IMG/VR virus record: IMGVR_UViG_2623620497_000008 | Span: 1-43,789 of that record | DNA from: a virus | Lineage: Duplodnaviria > Heunggongvirae > Uroviricota > Caudoviricetes | Direction: 5' to 3' (one strand) | DNA length: 43,789 nucleotides | Part shown: positions 9,927-27,816 of the stretch, piece after piece | Position numbering within the stretch: position 1 is the stretch's first letter | Layout of the letters: each line of letters opens with the position of its first letter | Translations under genes and position numbers: made by a program | The notes under the pieces: generated by a model | The model's input: the letters and a program-made list of their open reading frames with translations, nothing else | The model's database searches: none | What the model was told of the DNA's origin: nothing

Positions 9927-10526
9927 TTAACCTCCCGAGATGAAACCGACAAACCGGCTTAGTAGCGACTCATCTTTCGGAGTCGGCGTCTTTACCCCTG
10001 AGTTTTGCACCGCTGACGTGTTCACCCCCTCTTTCATGTTTTCCTTCGCTGCCACGCTGACTGTCTGCGTCTGACTGGTGATTATTTCCCTGAGCGTAAC
10101 TGTCGCCATCAGTACGTTTTCGCTGGTACGTTCGGTCGTCACATCCAGAGAGCGGATCACCATATTGGTATAAAGACGTTTCCCGGTGGTCACATCAAGC
10201 AACTGCCTTTCCTGCTGCATTTTGAGCAGCTCAGCATAGACTTCCTTAGGCCCCATGTTGTTAAGGGGCGTAGACAGCCCGATGCCTGCTGTATCATAAA
10301 AATCCAGCAAGGAACCACCACCAGCAAAGCCTATCTCCATAACGACTTCTGACGGGCGCCGATATGCATGGTCTGCAATGAACCCTGTTCCTGCGCTTGT
10401 AGGCCTTTCAACTGGATGCTCTGTCACCTCCAGAGCATCGCTATGACGCTCTGAAACCACCACGTCGGGTATCATCAGACCAATACGGCGGCTCCGCTGC
10501 TGGAAAAGGGTTGAAAGAATATCCAT
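9927..10526 (-). CDS. tail/baseplate assembly protein, hypothetical (199 aa)
   Basis: ATG overlaps the tape-measure stop (TGATG). Confidence 0.5.
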   Translation of the reverse strand: MDILSTLFQQRSRRIGLMIPDVVVSERHSDALEVTEHPVERPTSAGTGFIADHAYRRPSEVVMEIGFAGGGSLLDFYDTAGIGLSTPLNNMGPKEVYAELLKMQQERQLLDVTTGKRLYTNMVIRSLDVTTERTSENVLMATVTLREIITSQTQTVSVAAKENMKEGVNTSAVQNSGVKTPTPKDESLLSRFVGFISGG

Positions 10527-12526
10527 CAGCTCGGCCCCCGGGTTAGTTGCTGGGTTGCGCGTGCATTAACGTTGCCCTGGCTTTCAGAGACGATTTTCCC
10601 CGCCTCTCTCGGATCGCTGACACCAGAAATGTTGATGACGGTATTCTGGTTCAATGTCGCGCCAGCCCCCGGCATATTGCTCAATACCTTGGGGATATAT
10701 TGCCTGGTTTCCTGCGGCATCAGCGCCATGCCGTACTTCTGCACGTTACCAATCCCCCAGTTATAGGAGGCCAGAGCTTTACCCAGATCGCCGCCGTTCT
10801 TCTGCAGGAGCATCGAAAGATATCGCGCCGCCGCTTCCGCTGACTTGATCGGGTCGAAGACATCATTCCCGTGTAGCCCCATATCCCGAGCGGTACCAGG
10901 CATAAACTGGAACATCCCTTGTGCGCCAGCACCGGATACAGCGAACTGATCCCCCCCTGATTCAGTGATAGCGACACTTCGCAGAAGACCAGAAGGCAGG
11001 TTATACATAGCCTCCAGTTTACCCATCATCGGAGCCATCCATCCAAGCAACTGAGCCCCTGCTTTTGAAGGTGACGGTCGTTTAACTGATTGCCCGTACT
11101 GCGTGGCATCACCATTCCACCAGTCAACAGCCTTATCCCATAACCCCTGCCCGACAGAGGCGGCACCCTGAATAACTGGACTGTCACTCCACGCTGCGGC
11201 TGCGCCTTTAAGCGAATCCCATGCGCCGGAGAAATCACCACTAATAACCTTTCGCAGCGCATCCACCAGCGAACCAAGGATTTTGATTGAACTGCGGACG
11301 CTTTCGATAATCTGGTCAAACAGCCATTTGCCATTAAATTTCGACGTGTCGATATTAATGAATTCAAGGAATCGCTTACCCAGATCGAGAATGGCAGAAC
11401 CTAGGTCTTTAACCTTCACATAGATGCCACCGAAGTCCTTACTCAGGCTGGCAAAAGCCTTTTGGGCATATTTGATACCCGGCTCCCATTTTCCCCAGTC
11501 TATAAGCGACTGGCCGCCTTCTTTCCATGTGCGGTAATCGTCGTAGAGACCTATCAGCGCAGCACCCAGCATAATGACGCGCCCAATAGGCGACATCGCA
11601 AAGGCACTATTCAGGAGACGCCAGGCAATCATTAGCGCCCCAAACACCTCGATAACCTGTCTGGTTTCGGTACCGAGTGATTTCCACCAGTTGATAATGT
11701 CCCCGGTGAGCTGTATCAACCGATAAACCACCCGGCCAATGATTTCACCAAACCACAGGACACCTTTGATACCAGCAGTGATAGCCCCTTCAATTTTCGG
11801 GAAATTCTCCATGATCTGACGGCGCAGCCTGTCGAGAGAGCCAGCAAGTCCATCAGCGAGACTGGAGCCGATTTTATCCCGTGCCATGCCTGCCATCAGC
11901 CCAAAGGAGCGCAGCGAGGTCATGAATTTATTGGAGCTGACGGCGGCCACATCGGCGTTATAGCCGATCGCCTTCGCCATCGCGGTGTATTCGCCACTAA
12001 ACTGGCCGATACCGCGACGCATTGCCATCAGGGTGTTTTCATCCAGACCCAGCATCTGAGCGTACTGGTTCGCGCGGTAATACGGCATGCTGCTAAGACG
12101 CTGGCCGACGCCGGTAAAGATCGTCGCCATATCCCGCATGTTGCCGCTGGCATCACGCGTTTGAACCCCCAGCCGGTTGAGGAAACCCTCAGCGCCGGGA
12201 TTGTTACGCATGAACCGGGCAAGATTTTCGAGAGAGCCGCGGGCCCCGTCGACACTGCCGCCAACCTGACTAACTGCATACCCTATCTGCTTAATACCCT
12301 CTACCGTCGCGCCTGTGCGCTGAGAGGCCCAGTACAGGTCGTCGAGACCGCTGGCAATTTTCGCGGTGAATGCAACGACGGAAAGCGCCGCCGCCTCAAC
12401 TTTGACGCCCAGCTCAATCGCTTTAAGCGTTGTCCCGGCAACGACGGCATCGAATTTTCTGGCGCCAGCCTCATCAACTTTGAACCCAAGCGAGATCAGA
12501 AAGTCCTTGAGCGTTTCAGCGTTCAT
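10526..12526 (-). CDS. tail tape measure protein with C-terminal lytic transglycosylase (SLT) domain
   Basis: 666 aa, helical/Gly-Ala-rich; C-terminal GMFQFMPGTARDMGL...AEAAARYLSMLL...YNWG motif typical of SLT domains. Confidence 0.75.
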   Translation of the reverse strand: MNAETLKDFLISLGFKVDEAGARKFDAVVAGTTLKAIELGVKVEAAALSVVAFTAKIASGLDDLYWASQRTGATVEGIKQIGYAVSQVGGSVDGARGSLENLARFMRNNPGAEGFLNRLGVQTRDASGNMRDMATIFTGVGQRLSSMPYYRANQYAQMLGLDENTLMAMRRGIGQFSGEYTAMAKAIGYNADVAAVSSNKFMTSLRSFGLMAGMARDKIGSSLADGLAGSLDRLRRQIMENFPKIEGAITAGIKGVLWFGEIIGRVVYRLIQLTGDIINWWKSLGTETRQVIEVFGALMIAWRLLNSAFAMSPIGRVIMLGAALIGLYDDYRTWKEGGQSLIDWGKWEPGIKYAQKAFASLSKDFGGIYVKVKDLGSAILDLGKRFLEFINIDTSKFNGKWLFDQIIESVRSSIKILGSLVDALRKVISGDFSGAWDSLKGAAAAWSDSPVIQGAASVGQGLWDKAVDWWNGDATQYGQSVKRPSPSKAGAQLLGWMAPMMGKLEAMYNLPSGLLRSVAITESGGDQFAVSGAGAQGMFQFMPGTARDMGLHGNDVFDPIKSAEAAARYLSMLLQKNGGDLGKALASYNWGIGNVQKYGMALMPQETRQYIPKVLSNMPGAGATLNQNTVINISGVSDPREAGKIVSESQGNVNARATQQLTRGPS

Positions 12527-12748
12527 TAGCCTCTCTCCATTTCGCTATACGGTTTTCGTTATCGGCTTTCAGGTCCAGCCAGTCATTCATACGGGCAATA
12601 TCAGCCAGGTCTACTGATCCATCTTTCAGGGCGGTGTAGGGGATGAGCCCGGCATCCACCGGGCGCATCAGGAAATCCTCGCCTTCTGGCATGGATTCCA
12701 GGGCTGGACCTATGGCTGGGTAGGCGTCTCGCTGGCGGGGAGTTCTTT
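12516..12748 (-). other. -1 frame extension ORF (80 codons) downstream of the chaperone slippery site; frameshift fusion product of tail assembly chaperone
   Basis: Open -1 frame from slippery heptamer (12749-12755) to TGA at 12516-12518, overlapping the tape-measure start. Confidence 0.55.
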
Positions 12749-13129
12749 CAAAAAATTTCCCAGACTATCGGCGACCACCCGCGCCACCAGCTGCAGCATA
12801 GTAAACAGGTCGATATCGTCGAACATAAGCACGCCCTGATCGAAGACTTTCGCCCAGCCCTTTTCGTGCTGGCGGGAAACGACACTCAGGCACGGATAAA
12901 TCACCGCGTTAACGTCGTCGTCCGGCAGCGCTGCCAGCGTATCGGCAATTTTCGGCAGTACGCTTTCCAGCACAGCGCCGGAGTTACCGGCGGCGACCTG
13001 AGCCTTCAGCGTAGAGAATTCACTGACCAGACCAGCCAGCACGGGCAGAAGCTTACGACTGACCTTCAGCTGCTGGAAAACGTCGAGTTTCGCTGTGCGG
13101 TAGTTAACGCCCTTAATTTCAAATTCCAT
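12710..13129 (-). CDS. tail assembly chaperone (0-frame product)
   Basis: 139 aa, immediately upstream of the tape measure gene; conserved synteny. Confidence 0.6.
   Translation of the reverse strand: MEFEIKGVNYRTAKLDVFQQLKVSRKLLPVLAGLVSEFSTLKAQVAAGNSGAVLESVLPKIADTLAALPDDDVNAVIYPCLSVVSRQHEKGWAKVFDQGVLMFDDIDLFTMLQLVARVVADSLGNFLKELPASETPTQP
12749..12755 (-). other. putative -1 programmed ribosomal frameshift slippery heptamer U UUU UUG
   Basis: GGA AAU UUU UUG in chaperone frame, 12 codons before its stop. Confidence 0.5.
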
Positions 13130-13132
13130 CGA

Positions 13133-13576
13133 TTAAAACTCCCCCAGCAGTTGGTCAATCTTACCGGCGTCAAATACCCACGACACCGTATTGCCAACCT
13201 TGGCGTTAGCGTGATCCGGCTGCTTCTGGAATGCGCAGCTACGCGCGGTGGTGATATCGCCTGACACCTTGTTTCGGATGACAATCACGTTATTACCCCA
13301 GGTCGCCGAGGACTGGCTCTGCGCGTTATACATCAGGGACAGTTTTTTGTTCACCGGGGACGTTTTCAGCAGGGTAACTGTGATGGTGCCACTCTTACCG
13401 GCGTGCAGGCTGTGCATCACCTCACCATCGGCGCCGACGGTCATGGTGTTTTTTGCCTCGGTCATCGCAACCGTAATACCTTCTTCGGAGTTCGCCGAGC
13501 CGTAGCCCAGATCGATACTGCCGGTTGGGCCCGTCAGGGATGCCGAGACGTCAATAAAACTATAGGTTCCGCTCAT
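13133..13576 (-). CDS. tail tube protein
   Basis: 147 aa; directly downstream of the sheath gene. Confidence 0.55.
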   Translation of the reverse strand: MSGTYSFIDVSASLTGPTGSIDLGYGSANSEEGITVAMTEAKNTMTVGADGEVMHSLHAGKSGTITVTLLKTSPVNKKLSLMYNAQSQSSATWGNNVIVIRNKVSGDITTARSCAFQKQPDHANAKVGNTVSWVFDAGKIDQLLGEF

Positions 13577-13585
13577 GGTCGCTCC

Positions 13586-14731
13586 TTATCGCACCACATT
13601 GATCTGCACGTCGGCATAGTGAATGGCACCCGCCAGTTTGATCGCCGCCTGAATCACCGGCGACTTACGCGCTTCCCTGTCGGACTGCGCCTGGTTATCT
13701 ACTGAATCGGCGTAGACGTAGTAACCCTTGGTCAGTGTGTCACCTGATTCAATCTGGCCGATCGGGCCGCCATTCCATACACCCGGAGCAATAAGGCCGT
13801 TATTTACCGCCTGATCCAGTGAGGCTTCGACGTTGGTCATTAACCGGGTTACGCCCGCGTCGGTTTGCGGAATTTTGGTATTCGAGGTGTACAGCAGGTT
13901 GTAAAGGTTGGTCTGAACGTAGTTCTGCAGCCAGTCCAGCCCGTGGCGCTCATCAAAGAAATCACCGTTCGCCATGACACCCTGCTGGATAATCGCTGTA
14001 TCGTTGGCGTAGTAGACGTAGACGTTACCGTTAATGGCATCAATAGCGGACGCCTGCGCGGTCGTGAGCGTTTCGTACGTCACGCCAGGCTCGGTTTTGA
14101 ATTTCAGGGTGATCGTGGTGTTGTTGCCGGTGAAATTCACCGTAAACGCACGGCCAAATGCCGAGATAGCGGCGTATTTGCTGCTGGAGCTGTACTGCCA
14201 GAACGTACGGCTGTAGCCGGCGGCTTTCAGCTTATAGCCGATGTTGTCGGTATTCCCCGAGACCAGCACATTCACATCATCAGTGGTAACGGCCAGAATG
14301 CGACTCAGGCTGGATGCCTCGATCGCCGCAGCAACCGAAATCACGTCAGCCTCAACCAGATCGGCGCTATCGGCAATCGCCAGCCCGTACCAGTTGGTAT
14401 ATTGCAGAGAGGCATTAACCGCCTGCAGCAGCGTTTCAACTGTGCCATCTTCACCTTCCGCCAGCGTCTTCGCCCAGCGGCCGATATAGACCAGCGTCGG
14501 TTTTGGTGATTGTGAAAAGAAGATGGTCGCTGCTTCGTATTCCGGGGAGTCAACGCCAAAATCATCGCCGATATCTTCAATGGCCGAATACTGGCGAATG
14601 CGCTCGGTAACCGGAATAACGGTAGAGGTTCCCAGAATGAGGAGCGCACCGAAGTTTCGCCCCGTTGCCGCTACCGGTGACATGATGACGTCAACGTTAA
14701 CGACATTGGAAACAGGTAAGCCCTGTGCCAT
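13586..14731 (-). CDS. contractile tail sheath protein
   Basis: 381 aa; size and sheath-tube-chaperone-TMP order. Confidence 0.65.
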
Positions 14732-27638: not shown

Positions 27639-27713
27639 TGGCGGGACAGGAAGGATTCGAACCTTCTACCATTCGGTTAACAGCCGAACGCACAACCGCT
27701 GTGCTTCTGACCC
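27639..27713 (-). tRNA. tRNA-Asn (anticodon GUU), phage-encoded
   Basis: 75-nt cloverleaf read by eye: acceptor GGGUCAG/CUGUCCC (one U-U mismatch), D-stem GCAC/GUGC, anticodon stem UUCGG/CCGAA with loop CUGUUAA, T-arm GAAGG-UUCGAAU-CCUUC, discriminator G, encoded CCA. Confidence 0.7.
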
Positions 27714-27720
27714 TGAAATG

Positions 27721-27747
27721 AAAAAGCCCAAGGCGTTAACCTCGGGC
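27721..27747 (-). terminator. terminator-like hairpin (GCCCGAGG-UUAACG-CCUUGGGC + U5) immediately 5' of the tRNA; candidate tR'-like element
   Basis: Inverted repeat 27726-27747 with A5 27721-27725 on plus strand. Confidence 0.4.
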
Positions 27748-27816
27748 TTGAATTCTTTATGTGTCGACAATCGAAGCTATGGCGACGATATCAGATTTAC
27801 ATGAAATATATGCCTT

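Follow-up and report, generated by a model that had tools for sequence, protein, structure and literature searches.

A Probable Programmed −1 Ribosomal Frameshift in the Gene for the Tail Assembly Chaperone of a Contractile-Tailed Enterobacterial Phage

The chaperone locus and its overlapping reading frame

The window analyzed here is a 43,789-nucleotide stretch of tailed-phage DNA from a Klebsiella prophage (IMG/VR record IMGVR_UViG_2623620497_000008), and the genes described below all lie on its minus strand (−), in the order sheath, tube, chaperone, −1 open reading frame (ORF), and tape measure. The tail sheath gene (13586..14731, −) encodes a DUF3383 protein (Pfam PF11863, 2e-103; phrog_205 tail sheath, 5e-130). 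The tail tube gene (13133..13576, −) belongs to the DUF3277 / KPP10_Orf10 family (Pfam PF11681 at 7e-62) and lies directly upstream of the chaperone gene; its homologue in Burkholderia phage Magia is annotated as XkdM-like. The tape measure gene (10526..12526, −) encodes a protein of 666 aa (phrog_2276, 2.9e-213) with an SLT lytic transglycosylase domain at its C terminus (Pfam SLT, 3e-24). As in the G/GT-type arrangement of tailed phages defined by Xu et al. 2004, an overlapping pair of ORFs is placed between the tube and tape measure genes.

The first member of this pair, equivalent to “G” or “E,” is the zero-frame tail assembly chaperone gene, which appears in the ORF list at 12710..13129 (−). 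It encodes 139 aa, ends at a TAG (12712..12710, −), and is a member of Pfam PF21822, Phage_TAC_15 (1.3e-34), and of phrog_1688, tail assembly chaperone (5e-56). The second member lies in the −1 frame across the 3′ end of the first and lacks a conserved start. Its frame opens three codons before a run of U residues, after a TAG at 12767..12765, to give a productive overlap of 17 codons. Counted from the first U of the run, this extension (12516..12755, −), the equivalent of “T” or “E-prime,” has 79 sense codons followed by a TGA (12518..12516, −), that is, the 80 codons reported in an earlier note on this DNA. That note also had the frame ending in an overlap with the tape measure start, and the TGA does lie 11 nt inside the tape measure ORF, whose ATG is at 12526..12524. 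The −1 peptide matches Pfam PF21829, DUF6889 (1.3e-20), and phrog_4364 (8e-28). A shift on U UUU UUG would join the two parts as join(13129..12749, 12749..12516), a predicted fusion of 204 aa; this conceptual fusion scores 119.9 bits for Phage_TAC_15, against a gathering cutoff of 22, and 73.2 bits for DUF6889, against a gathering cutoff of 23.9.

Within the overlap is a 13-nt run, G GGA AAU UUU UUG (12749..12761, −; sequence GGGAAAUUUUUUG), that contains three overlapping, in-register heptamers of the X XXY YYZ form: G GGA AAU (12761..12755), A AAU UUU (12758..12752), and U UUU UUG (12755..12749). The codons AAU UUU UUG specify N125, F126, and L127, so that the TTTTTTG is read in register as U UUU UUG, and 12 sense codons (KELPASETPTQP) separate it from the chaperone TAG. 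The earlier description of the slip site was correct for U UUU UUG and its distance of twelve codons from the stop, but it omitted the minus strand and the two further heptamers. The 13-mer occurs once in the window. TTTTTTG is present in 17 copies against about 10 expected, and by our own estimate an X XXY YYZ heptamer is expected by chance in ~7% of 17-codon overlaps, so that taken by itself the heptamer is weak evidence.

The earlier note proposed a search for a downstream pseudoknot or stem-loop, and the searches made for one were negative. The single-sequence fold of the window gave z = −0.67, RNAalifold applied to 44 diverse aligned relatives returned 2 invariant pairs and a consensus energy of −0.25 kcal/mol, and Rfam at a permissive E-value had no match across positions 12400-13000. 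A TTTTTTG with no downstream stimulatory hairpin is the pattern of the P2-type site. Any stimulation would consequently have to be supplied by the site itself or by a weak element on its 5′ side, for which there is a candidate: the G-rich sequence GGGUGGU (12774..12780, −), with weak anti-Shine-Dalgarno complementarity, precedes G GGA AAU by 12 nt and U UUU UUG by 18 nt. Its anti-Shine-Dalgarno duplex energy is about −6 kcal/mol, compared to a gene-wide mean of −0.5, and the codons that form it are anomalous across relatives, with CGG at R117 in 47/66, compared to 1-9 in other Arg columns, and GTG at V118 in 67/73. The synonymous observed/expected ratio dips to 0.60-0.66 there. We suggest, as a hypothesis only, that GGGUGGU may be a 5′ stimulator. 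In most members GGGUGG precedes G GGA AAU by 12 nt; the Erwinia-type members that have lost this heptamer carry GGAGGA 12 nt 5′ of U UUU UUG. Conceivably, the position of the Shine-Dalgarno-like element tracks the heptamer type, a pattern seen in a few clades and confounded by phylogeny and by amino acid changes.

Conservation among relatives

The comparison set comprised 139 distinct related loci with 48-100% amino acid identity, drawn from IMG/VR phage contigs, GTDB prophages, and GenBank phages; among the pattern matches listed for IMG/VR, at least 553 relatives were confirmed. A stop in the −1 frame of related phages had been named beforehand as an observation that would count against a frameshift. 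In 137 of the 139 relatives the −1 frame stays open over 70 codons or more and runs into the next long ORF, and the two exceptions look like decayed or misassembled prophages. The 11-nt overlap of the −1 ORF with the tape measure gene recurs in 100 of these 137.

The slippery run itself is conserved beyond what protein coding needs, as is the arrangement around it. The U-run heptamer, in the form U UUU UUN, is kept in 138/139 distinct relatives, and the whole 13-mer is identical in 120/139. Codon choice at the run is fixed (GGA 66/73, AAT 67/67, TTT 72/72, TTG 67/68); elsewhere in the chaperone gene the amino acids G, N, F, and L are encoded by other codons. The synonymous observed/expected ratio is ~1.0 over codons 1-112, falls to 0.08-0.10 at codons 125-128, and is then 0.3-0.6 through the overlap. 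Since the heptamer hardly varies among sequences of 55-83% nucleotide identity and synonymous divergence drops away there, the site stands above the chance expectation given above.

The −1 frame also has the signature of a translated sequence. Conservation of its peptide, FF[AE]RTP[RY]QRD..., starts at the slip site, and third codon positions are the most variable, also 5′ of the local ATG; between the zero-frame stop and that ATG the mean entropies of the three −1-frame codon positions are 0.96/0.46/1.54.

Variants of the run among the relatives bear on where the shift would fall. Three of them have a −1-frame stop directly 5′ of UUUUUU (L136, GGU GAU UUU UUG; L104, GGU AGU UUU UUU; L151, GGU AAU UUU UUU), and because the stop immediately precedes the run, a shift in these phages must fall on the U-run. 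In another relative, L137, and in Bordetella IFTN9, the sole heptamer left is G GGA AAU. The arrangement also persists in more distant relatives (T-domain identity 37-48%), where other heptamers occupy the homologous spot: C CCU UUU in Magia, G GGU UUU and U UUU UUC in a Ralstonia member, U UUU UUU in a Providencia member, and G GGA AAU in the Bordetella member. Edwardsiella ZHS and Burkholderia E192a, also distant, lack a canonical heptamer and have just U UUU A at that position.

Proposed mechanism and alternative explanations

We consider it very probable that this locus undergoes programmed −1 ribosomal frameshifting of the type known from phage tail assembly chaperones, as the earlier note had proposed; family matches, conservation, and synonymous constraint all point to it. 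The further identification of a conserved G/GT-type frameshift is upheld by the gene order, the chaperone family, a conserved −1 domain with no conserved start, and the precedent of phage P2. Most ribosomes would translate the 139-aa chaperone and terminate at the TAG (12712..12710), and a minority would slip back one nucleotide on G GGA AAU UUU UUG (12761..12749) and read 77-79 codons of the −1 frame to the TGA (12518..12516). The product would be a fusion of ~204 aa, with a C-terminal DUF6889 domain made only by frameshifting. If the lambda gpG/gpGT pair is a guide, the N-terminal part common to both forms would coat the tape measure protein, the C-terminal extension would recruit the tail tube protein, and the frameshift rate would set the ratio of chaperone to fusion. 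That the slip occurs, how often, on which heptamer, and what the two proteins do are all predictions made from sequence.

The shift most likely falls on the U-run, with tRNA-Phe on U UUU and UUG in the A site, as in P2 E/E+E′, and the lambda-like heptamer G GGA AAU is a plausible second site. Against the U-run it may be said that in synthetic tests in E. coli U UUU UUG does not rank with the heptamers most prone to shift, and A AAA AAG performs far better than U-run sites (PMC5009743). A more elaborate version, which we think doubtful, would make the whole run a compound signal, its three overlapping heptamers offering up to three successive chances to slip with assistance from the G-rich anti-Shine-Dalgarno element. 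If this were the case, two fusion isoforms would be expected, ...GNFFERT... and ...GNFLERT..., and a tunable tandem-site design would set the chaperone-to-fusion ratio without 3′ RNA structure.

The same fusion, with the junction ...GNFFERT..., could arise by standard translation if RNA polymerase added one U on the T6 run, and the inserted U would yield the same reading frame. Such transcriptional slippage would fit the fact that the most conserved element is a homopolymer, T6 (T7 in four relatives), and one database protein, P0002, is an in-frame fusion whose junction is exactly that produced by one extra T, which shows the run to be prone to indels, at least at the level of DNA or of assemblies. 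We nevertheless judge it very unlikely. Six residues is short compared to the ~9 A or T for which productive bacterial slippage has been described (PMC5009743), and the heptamer of some relatives is no homopolymer: L137 and Bordetella IFTN9 have G GGA AAU as their only one, and Magia has C CCU UUU. The G that follows the run in 132/139 relatives and the GGA AAU before it fit codon-anticodon re-pairing rather than run length, and the event at the P2 TTTTTTG is described as translational (PMC3091744). We did not use P0002, or the other in-frame “fusions” in the databases, P0001 and P0043, as evidence of natural fusions, because each joins its two parts in a way that suggests an indel or an assembly error.

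Slightly less probable still is a separate small gene with its own start, either the ATG at 12692 or an internal ATG, next to which the heptamer would be incidental. An ATG is indeed present at 12692 in the window and begins a 58-aa sub-ORF of the −1 frame in the ORF list (12516..12692, −); database records carry this sub-ORF, or a 50-aa version of it, as a separate gene. Stand-alone CDSs of 41-58 aa are annotated there in MK448230, GZ7, yong1, and PSTCR3, and MK448230, a 100%-identical GenBank record, names its product “NTP pyrophosphohydrolase.” However, the ATG 12692 column is ATG in only 5/45 representatives and CTG in 23/45, so a start at this position is not conserved, and a second ATG is found in 20/45. 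In SEN34, YP3, and the E. coli phages no methionine precedes the conserved domain. Moreover, the conservation and coding periodicity of the −1 peptide extend 5′ of the ATG back to the slip site, and zero-frame synonymous sites are constrained from the heptamer onward. As for a functionless juxtaposition of a slippery-looking heptamer with an open −1 frame, the 17 copies of TTTTTTG and the ~7% expectation lend it some initial appeal, but the near-invariance of the run, the fixed codons, the synonymous collapse, and the −1 domain conserved across 139 relatives are incompatible with neutrality. The comparative data effectively refute it, and it is the least credible of the alternatives.

We thus return to a ribosomal frameshift, which we regard as real, ordinary, and already known in kind, with no new principle involved. 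Its main value is for annotation: in MK448230, as in most relatives, the extension is either overlooked or listed as a small gene of its own, and a joined CDS, as in Klebsiella phage Mulock, is the correct gene model. The locus is also a further well-supported case of the near-universal chaperone frameshift, in a widespread clade of temperate Enterobacterales phages with contractile tails. With natural variants that pin the shift to the U-run and with its tandem heptamers, this family would be a convenient test system for site choice.

Comparison with known systems

In phage P2, a −1 shift at TTTTTTG in E/E+E′ is experimentally established (Christie 2002 and Xu 2004, cited in PMC3091744), and according to that article no downstream hairpin or other RNA structure is known for the site. 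P2 and the phage in the window have in common a contractile tail, an enterobacterial host, the TTTTTTG itself, a gene placed between tube and tape measure, and a short zero-frame tail. They differ in that the Pfam search detected no sequence relationship, the window protein matching only TAC_15 there, and in that on the 5′ side of the U-run the window carries two additional, overlapping heptamers. The P2 event was verified by experiment; that in the window is a prediction from sequence.

Lambda gpG/gpGT slips at G GGA AAG (Levin 1993 and Xu 2013/2014, as cited in PMC5009743). Lambda likewise makes a chaperone and a frameshift-extended form of it from a gene between the major tail and tape measure genes, and the first heptamer in the window, G GGA AAU, is one base off that of lambda. 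Lambda is, however, a siphovirus with a chaperone of a different protein family, and its A-site codon, AAG (Lys), is far more slip-prone in E. coli than the AAU (Asn) of the window.

A literature search found no paper about this family and none mentioning DUF6889 or PF21822; two counterparts come from genome records. Burkholderia phage Magia gp15/gp16 (NC_070954) belongs, as a distant member, to the DUF6889-bearing family, with a T-domain 42% identical to that in the window and the same arrangement, and its joined CDS is annotated as a tail assembly chaperone frameshift pair; it differs in having C CCU UUU at the homologous position rather than a U6 run. Klebsiella phage Mulock (CPT_Mulock_014/015, MN098327) is closer, with the same gene family and locus at 88% nucleotide identity. 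Its record names one product “tape measure chaperone” and gives the other, as a joined CDS (10190..10806), the name “tape measure chaperone frameshift product”; this annotation is a prediction, and a frameshift is not discussed in the genome announcement. The zero-frame tail of Mulock is three codons longer and its −1 frame is open much further upstream, but the 13-nt run is identical (GGGAAATTTTTTG) and the −1 ORF likewise ends 11 nt into the tape measure gene.

Locus and slippery run

Five successive ORFs on the minus strand run from sheath through tail tube, chaperone and a short -1-frame ORF to the tape measure. The tail sheath (13586..14731, -; DUF3383, phrog_205) and tail tube (13133..13576, -; DUF3277/KPP10_Orf10) precede a 139-aa chaperone (12710..13129, -) that matches the curated tail assembly chaperone family PF21822 Phage_TAC_15 (Pfam, 1.3e-34) and phrog_1688 (5e-56). 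The -1-frame ORF (-), ending at TGA 12518..12516, carries DUF6889 (Pfam, 1.3e-20; phrog_4364), and the 666-aa tape measure protein (10526..12526, -; phrog_2276, 2.9e-213) ends in an SLT lytic transglycosylase domain at its C-terminus (Pfam, 3e-24; residues 502-600), making it a ruler and a cell-wall-digesting protein in one. As a whole, the window is a mosaic temperate phage of Klebsiella, lambdoid in its early region, with a contractile tail, and of the Wanchaivirus/Mulock type. Elsewhere, a tRNA-Asn gene (anticodon GTT; 27639-27713, -) adjoins an Rfam match to the Hfq-binding sRNA isrJ (27723-27801, -; 57 bits versus a gathering score of 37), the pair being flanked by ORFs that border an early-region match on one side and a structural-region match on the other. 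That the phage carries this tRNA and has an AAU Asn codon in its slippery run is probably a coincidence.

The earlier note placed a slippery U UUU UUG twelve codons ahead of the chaperone stop, and TTTTTTG does occupy 12755..12749 (-); it is read as AAU UUU UUG (N125 F126 L127), and 12 sense codons separate it from the chaperone TAG. The open -1 frame that the note described, ending across the tape-measure start, was likewise confirmed: counted from the first U, 79 sense codons lead to the TGA, and the stop lies 11 nt into the tape measure ORF. Two features had gone unmentioned. Three X XXY YYZ heptamers overlap, all in register, within the run G GGA AAU UUU UUG (12761..12749), U UUU UUG being the most 3' of them, and the productive overlap is 17 codons, since the -1 frame opens just three codons 5' of the U-run. 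The heptamer taken alone is weak evidence, with TTTTTTG occurring 17 times in the window where about 10 copies would be expected; the complete 13-mer occurs once. The decisive evidence for function beyond chance is comparative, drawn from the sequences of relatives.

Conservation and competing readings

We compared loci from 12 GenBank phages, 80 IMG/VR contigs and 67 prophages of species-representative Enterobacterales genomes, giving 139 distinct nucleotide sequences with identities down to 48% (protein) and 55% (nucleotide); at least 553 of the IMG/VR pattern matches listed were confirmed as relatives. A stop in the -1 frame of related phages would speak against frameshifting, yet in 137/139 the frame has no stop for 70 codons or more and extends into the next long ORF, with the same 11-nt overlap in 100 of those 137. 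The two interrupted loci look like decayed prophages or misassemblies: in an Arsenophonus MAG (L150) the chaperone is truncated as well, and an Enterobacter sp. R1 contig (L119) has a second frame break, within the DUF6889 domain. U UUU UUN is kept in 138/139 (with the final G in 132) and the whole 13-mer in 120/139.

Codon choice at the slip site is fixed, unlike that in the remainder of the chaperone gene. Among 73 representatives, G124 is GGA in 66/73 (Gly99, 3/62), N125 is AAT in 67/67 (Asn74, 18/64), F126 is TTT in 72/72 (other Phe columns mix TTT and TTC), and L127 is TTG in 67/68 (other Leu columns are mostly CTG). Across 45 representatives less than 85% identical to one another, the synonymous ratio is flat at ~1.0 over codons 1-112, drops at codons 125-128 to 0.08-0.10, and remains low, at 0.3-0.6, up to the chaperone stop.

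We consider a programmed -1 frameshift yielding both chaperone and fusion very probably the correct reading and the best supported. Chance is the least credible alternative. Transcriptional slippage on the T6 tract is improbable, as the tract is short and relatives exist with non-homopolymeric heptamers. Independent initiation of the -1 ORF, the way several GenBank records annotate it, seems slightly less probable still. In an alignment of the 45 representatives, the -1 peptide is conserved from the first post-slip codon (FF[AE]RTP[RY]QRD...), and mean codon-position entropies are 0.96/0.46/1.54 from the 0-frame stop to the window's ATG (12692) and 0.73/0.60/1.41 past it, so the stretch 5' of the ATG also codes in the -1 frame. 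With this upstream coding conserved, and ATG present in only 5/45 at that column (CTG in 23/45), independent initiation is not the conserved way in which the ORF is expressed.

Under programmed frameshifting, the majority of ribosomes would produce the 139-aa chaperone, and a minority would slip by -1 on the run; the fusion made in this way, join(13129..12749, 12749..12516), would be 204 aa long. The analogy with lambda gpG/gpGT, a chaperone and its frameshift-extended form (PMC5009743), suggests that the tape measure would be coated by the shared N-terminal part and tube protein recruited by the extension. We inferred these two functions, the frameshift rate and the exact slip site.

Slip site and candidate stimulators

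G GGA AAU has been lost and the U-run kept in ~16/139 sequences (CTC/CTA/CTT GGA, GGC GGT, GGC AGT, GGA AGT and GGT variants). In three of the relatives, L136 (GGU GAU UUU UUG), L104 (GGU AGU UUU UUU) and L151 (GGU AAU UUU UUU), a -1-frame stop abuts UUUUUU, so that a shift there is possible on the U-run only. Conversely, G GGA AAU is the sole heptamer left in Bordetella phage IFTN9 and in a Salmonella enterica s1 prophage (L137; GGG AAA UAU UUU G, about 1294-1306). The latter, the only intact relative with a broken U-run, retains its -1 ORF and tape measure, and is a naturally occurring case for judging if G GGA AAU suffices by itself. At the homologous position, distant relatives carry C CCU UUU (Burkholderia phage Magia), G GGU UUU plus U UUU UUC (Ralstonia), U UUU UUU (Providencia), or G GGA AAU plus A AAU UUU (Acinetobacter Ab105-1phi). 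Edwardsiella phage ZHS (GAT TTT ATG) and Burkholderia phage vB_E192a (TCT TTT ATC) keep the -1 DUF6889 ORF, but at their homologous LGxF position a canonical X XXY YYZ is missing and just a U UUU tetramer (U UUU A) is left, which suggests that single-tRNA P-site slippage may be enough. A Phe codon after a U is the common denominator of the natural variants. On these patterns we lean toward the U-run as the primary slip site, with G GGA AAU a possible second.

The earlier note had proposed looking for a downstream pseudoknot or stem-loop; no conserved 3' structure was found by single-sequence folding or in aligned relatives, and an Rfam scan of the slip-site region gave no match. The P2 site is reported to be similar in this respect (PMC3091744). 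On the 5' side, R117 is the rare Arg codon CGG in 47/66 (1-9 in other Arg columns) and V118 is GTG in 67/73 representatives, together creating GGGUGG at 12780..12774 (-). Its anti-SD complementarity is modest (about -6 kcal/mol, where the gene averages -0.5). The element is 12 nt 5' of G GGA AAU, which falls in the 9-14 nt range effective for SD-like stimulators of -1 shifting (PMC5009743); from U UUU UUG it is separated by 18 nt. Erwinia-type relatives without G GGA AAU tend to carry GGAGGA 12 nt 5' of the U-run. Such G-rich elements may be 5' stimulators, a hypothesis only, since phylogeny and amino-acid changes confound this suggestive pattern.

Annotation and known systems

The 100%-identical GenBank record MK448230 (34139-34291, window 12540-12692, -) calls the -1 extension a stand-alone 50-aa "NTP pyrophosphohydrolase", a name also used in ST11-VIM1phi8.3 and ST340-VIM1phi10.1. 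The sequence is the DUF6889 domain, without an NTP pyrophosphohydrolase signature; the label is in all likelihood an error passed between records, and the practical result is a corrected annotation for the extension in such records. In database protein P0002, which comes from Logan assemblies (16 member sequences, 213 aa), chaperone and DUF6889 are fused in frame, and the junction, ...GNFFAYT..., is the product expected from one additional T in the T6 run; this could reflect a homopolymer sequencing error or a real T7 variant making the fusion only.

What the earlier note described is real, and its assignment to the G/GT type is supported. P2 E/E+E' has TTTTTTG as its established -1 site (PMC3091744). 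Klebsiella phage Mulock (MN098327) is 88% identical at the locus and shares the 13-mer; its record carries a joined CDS already, "tape measure chaperone frameshift product", and the Magia record (NC_070954) annotates a joined product for a distant family member. The arrangement is thus an ordinary one, known in kind beforehand.
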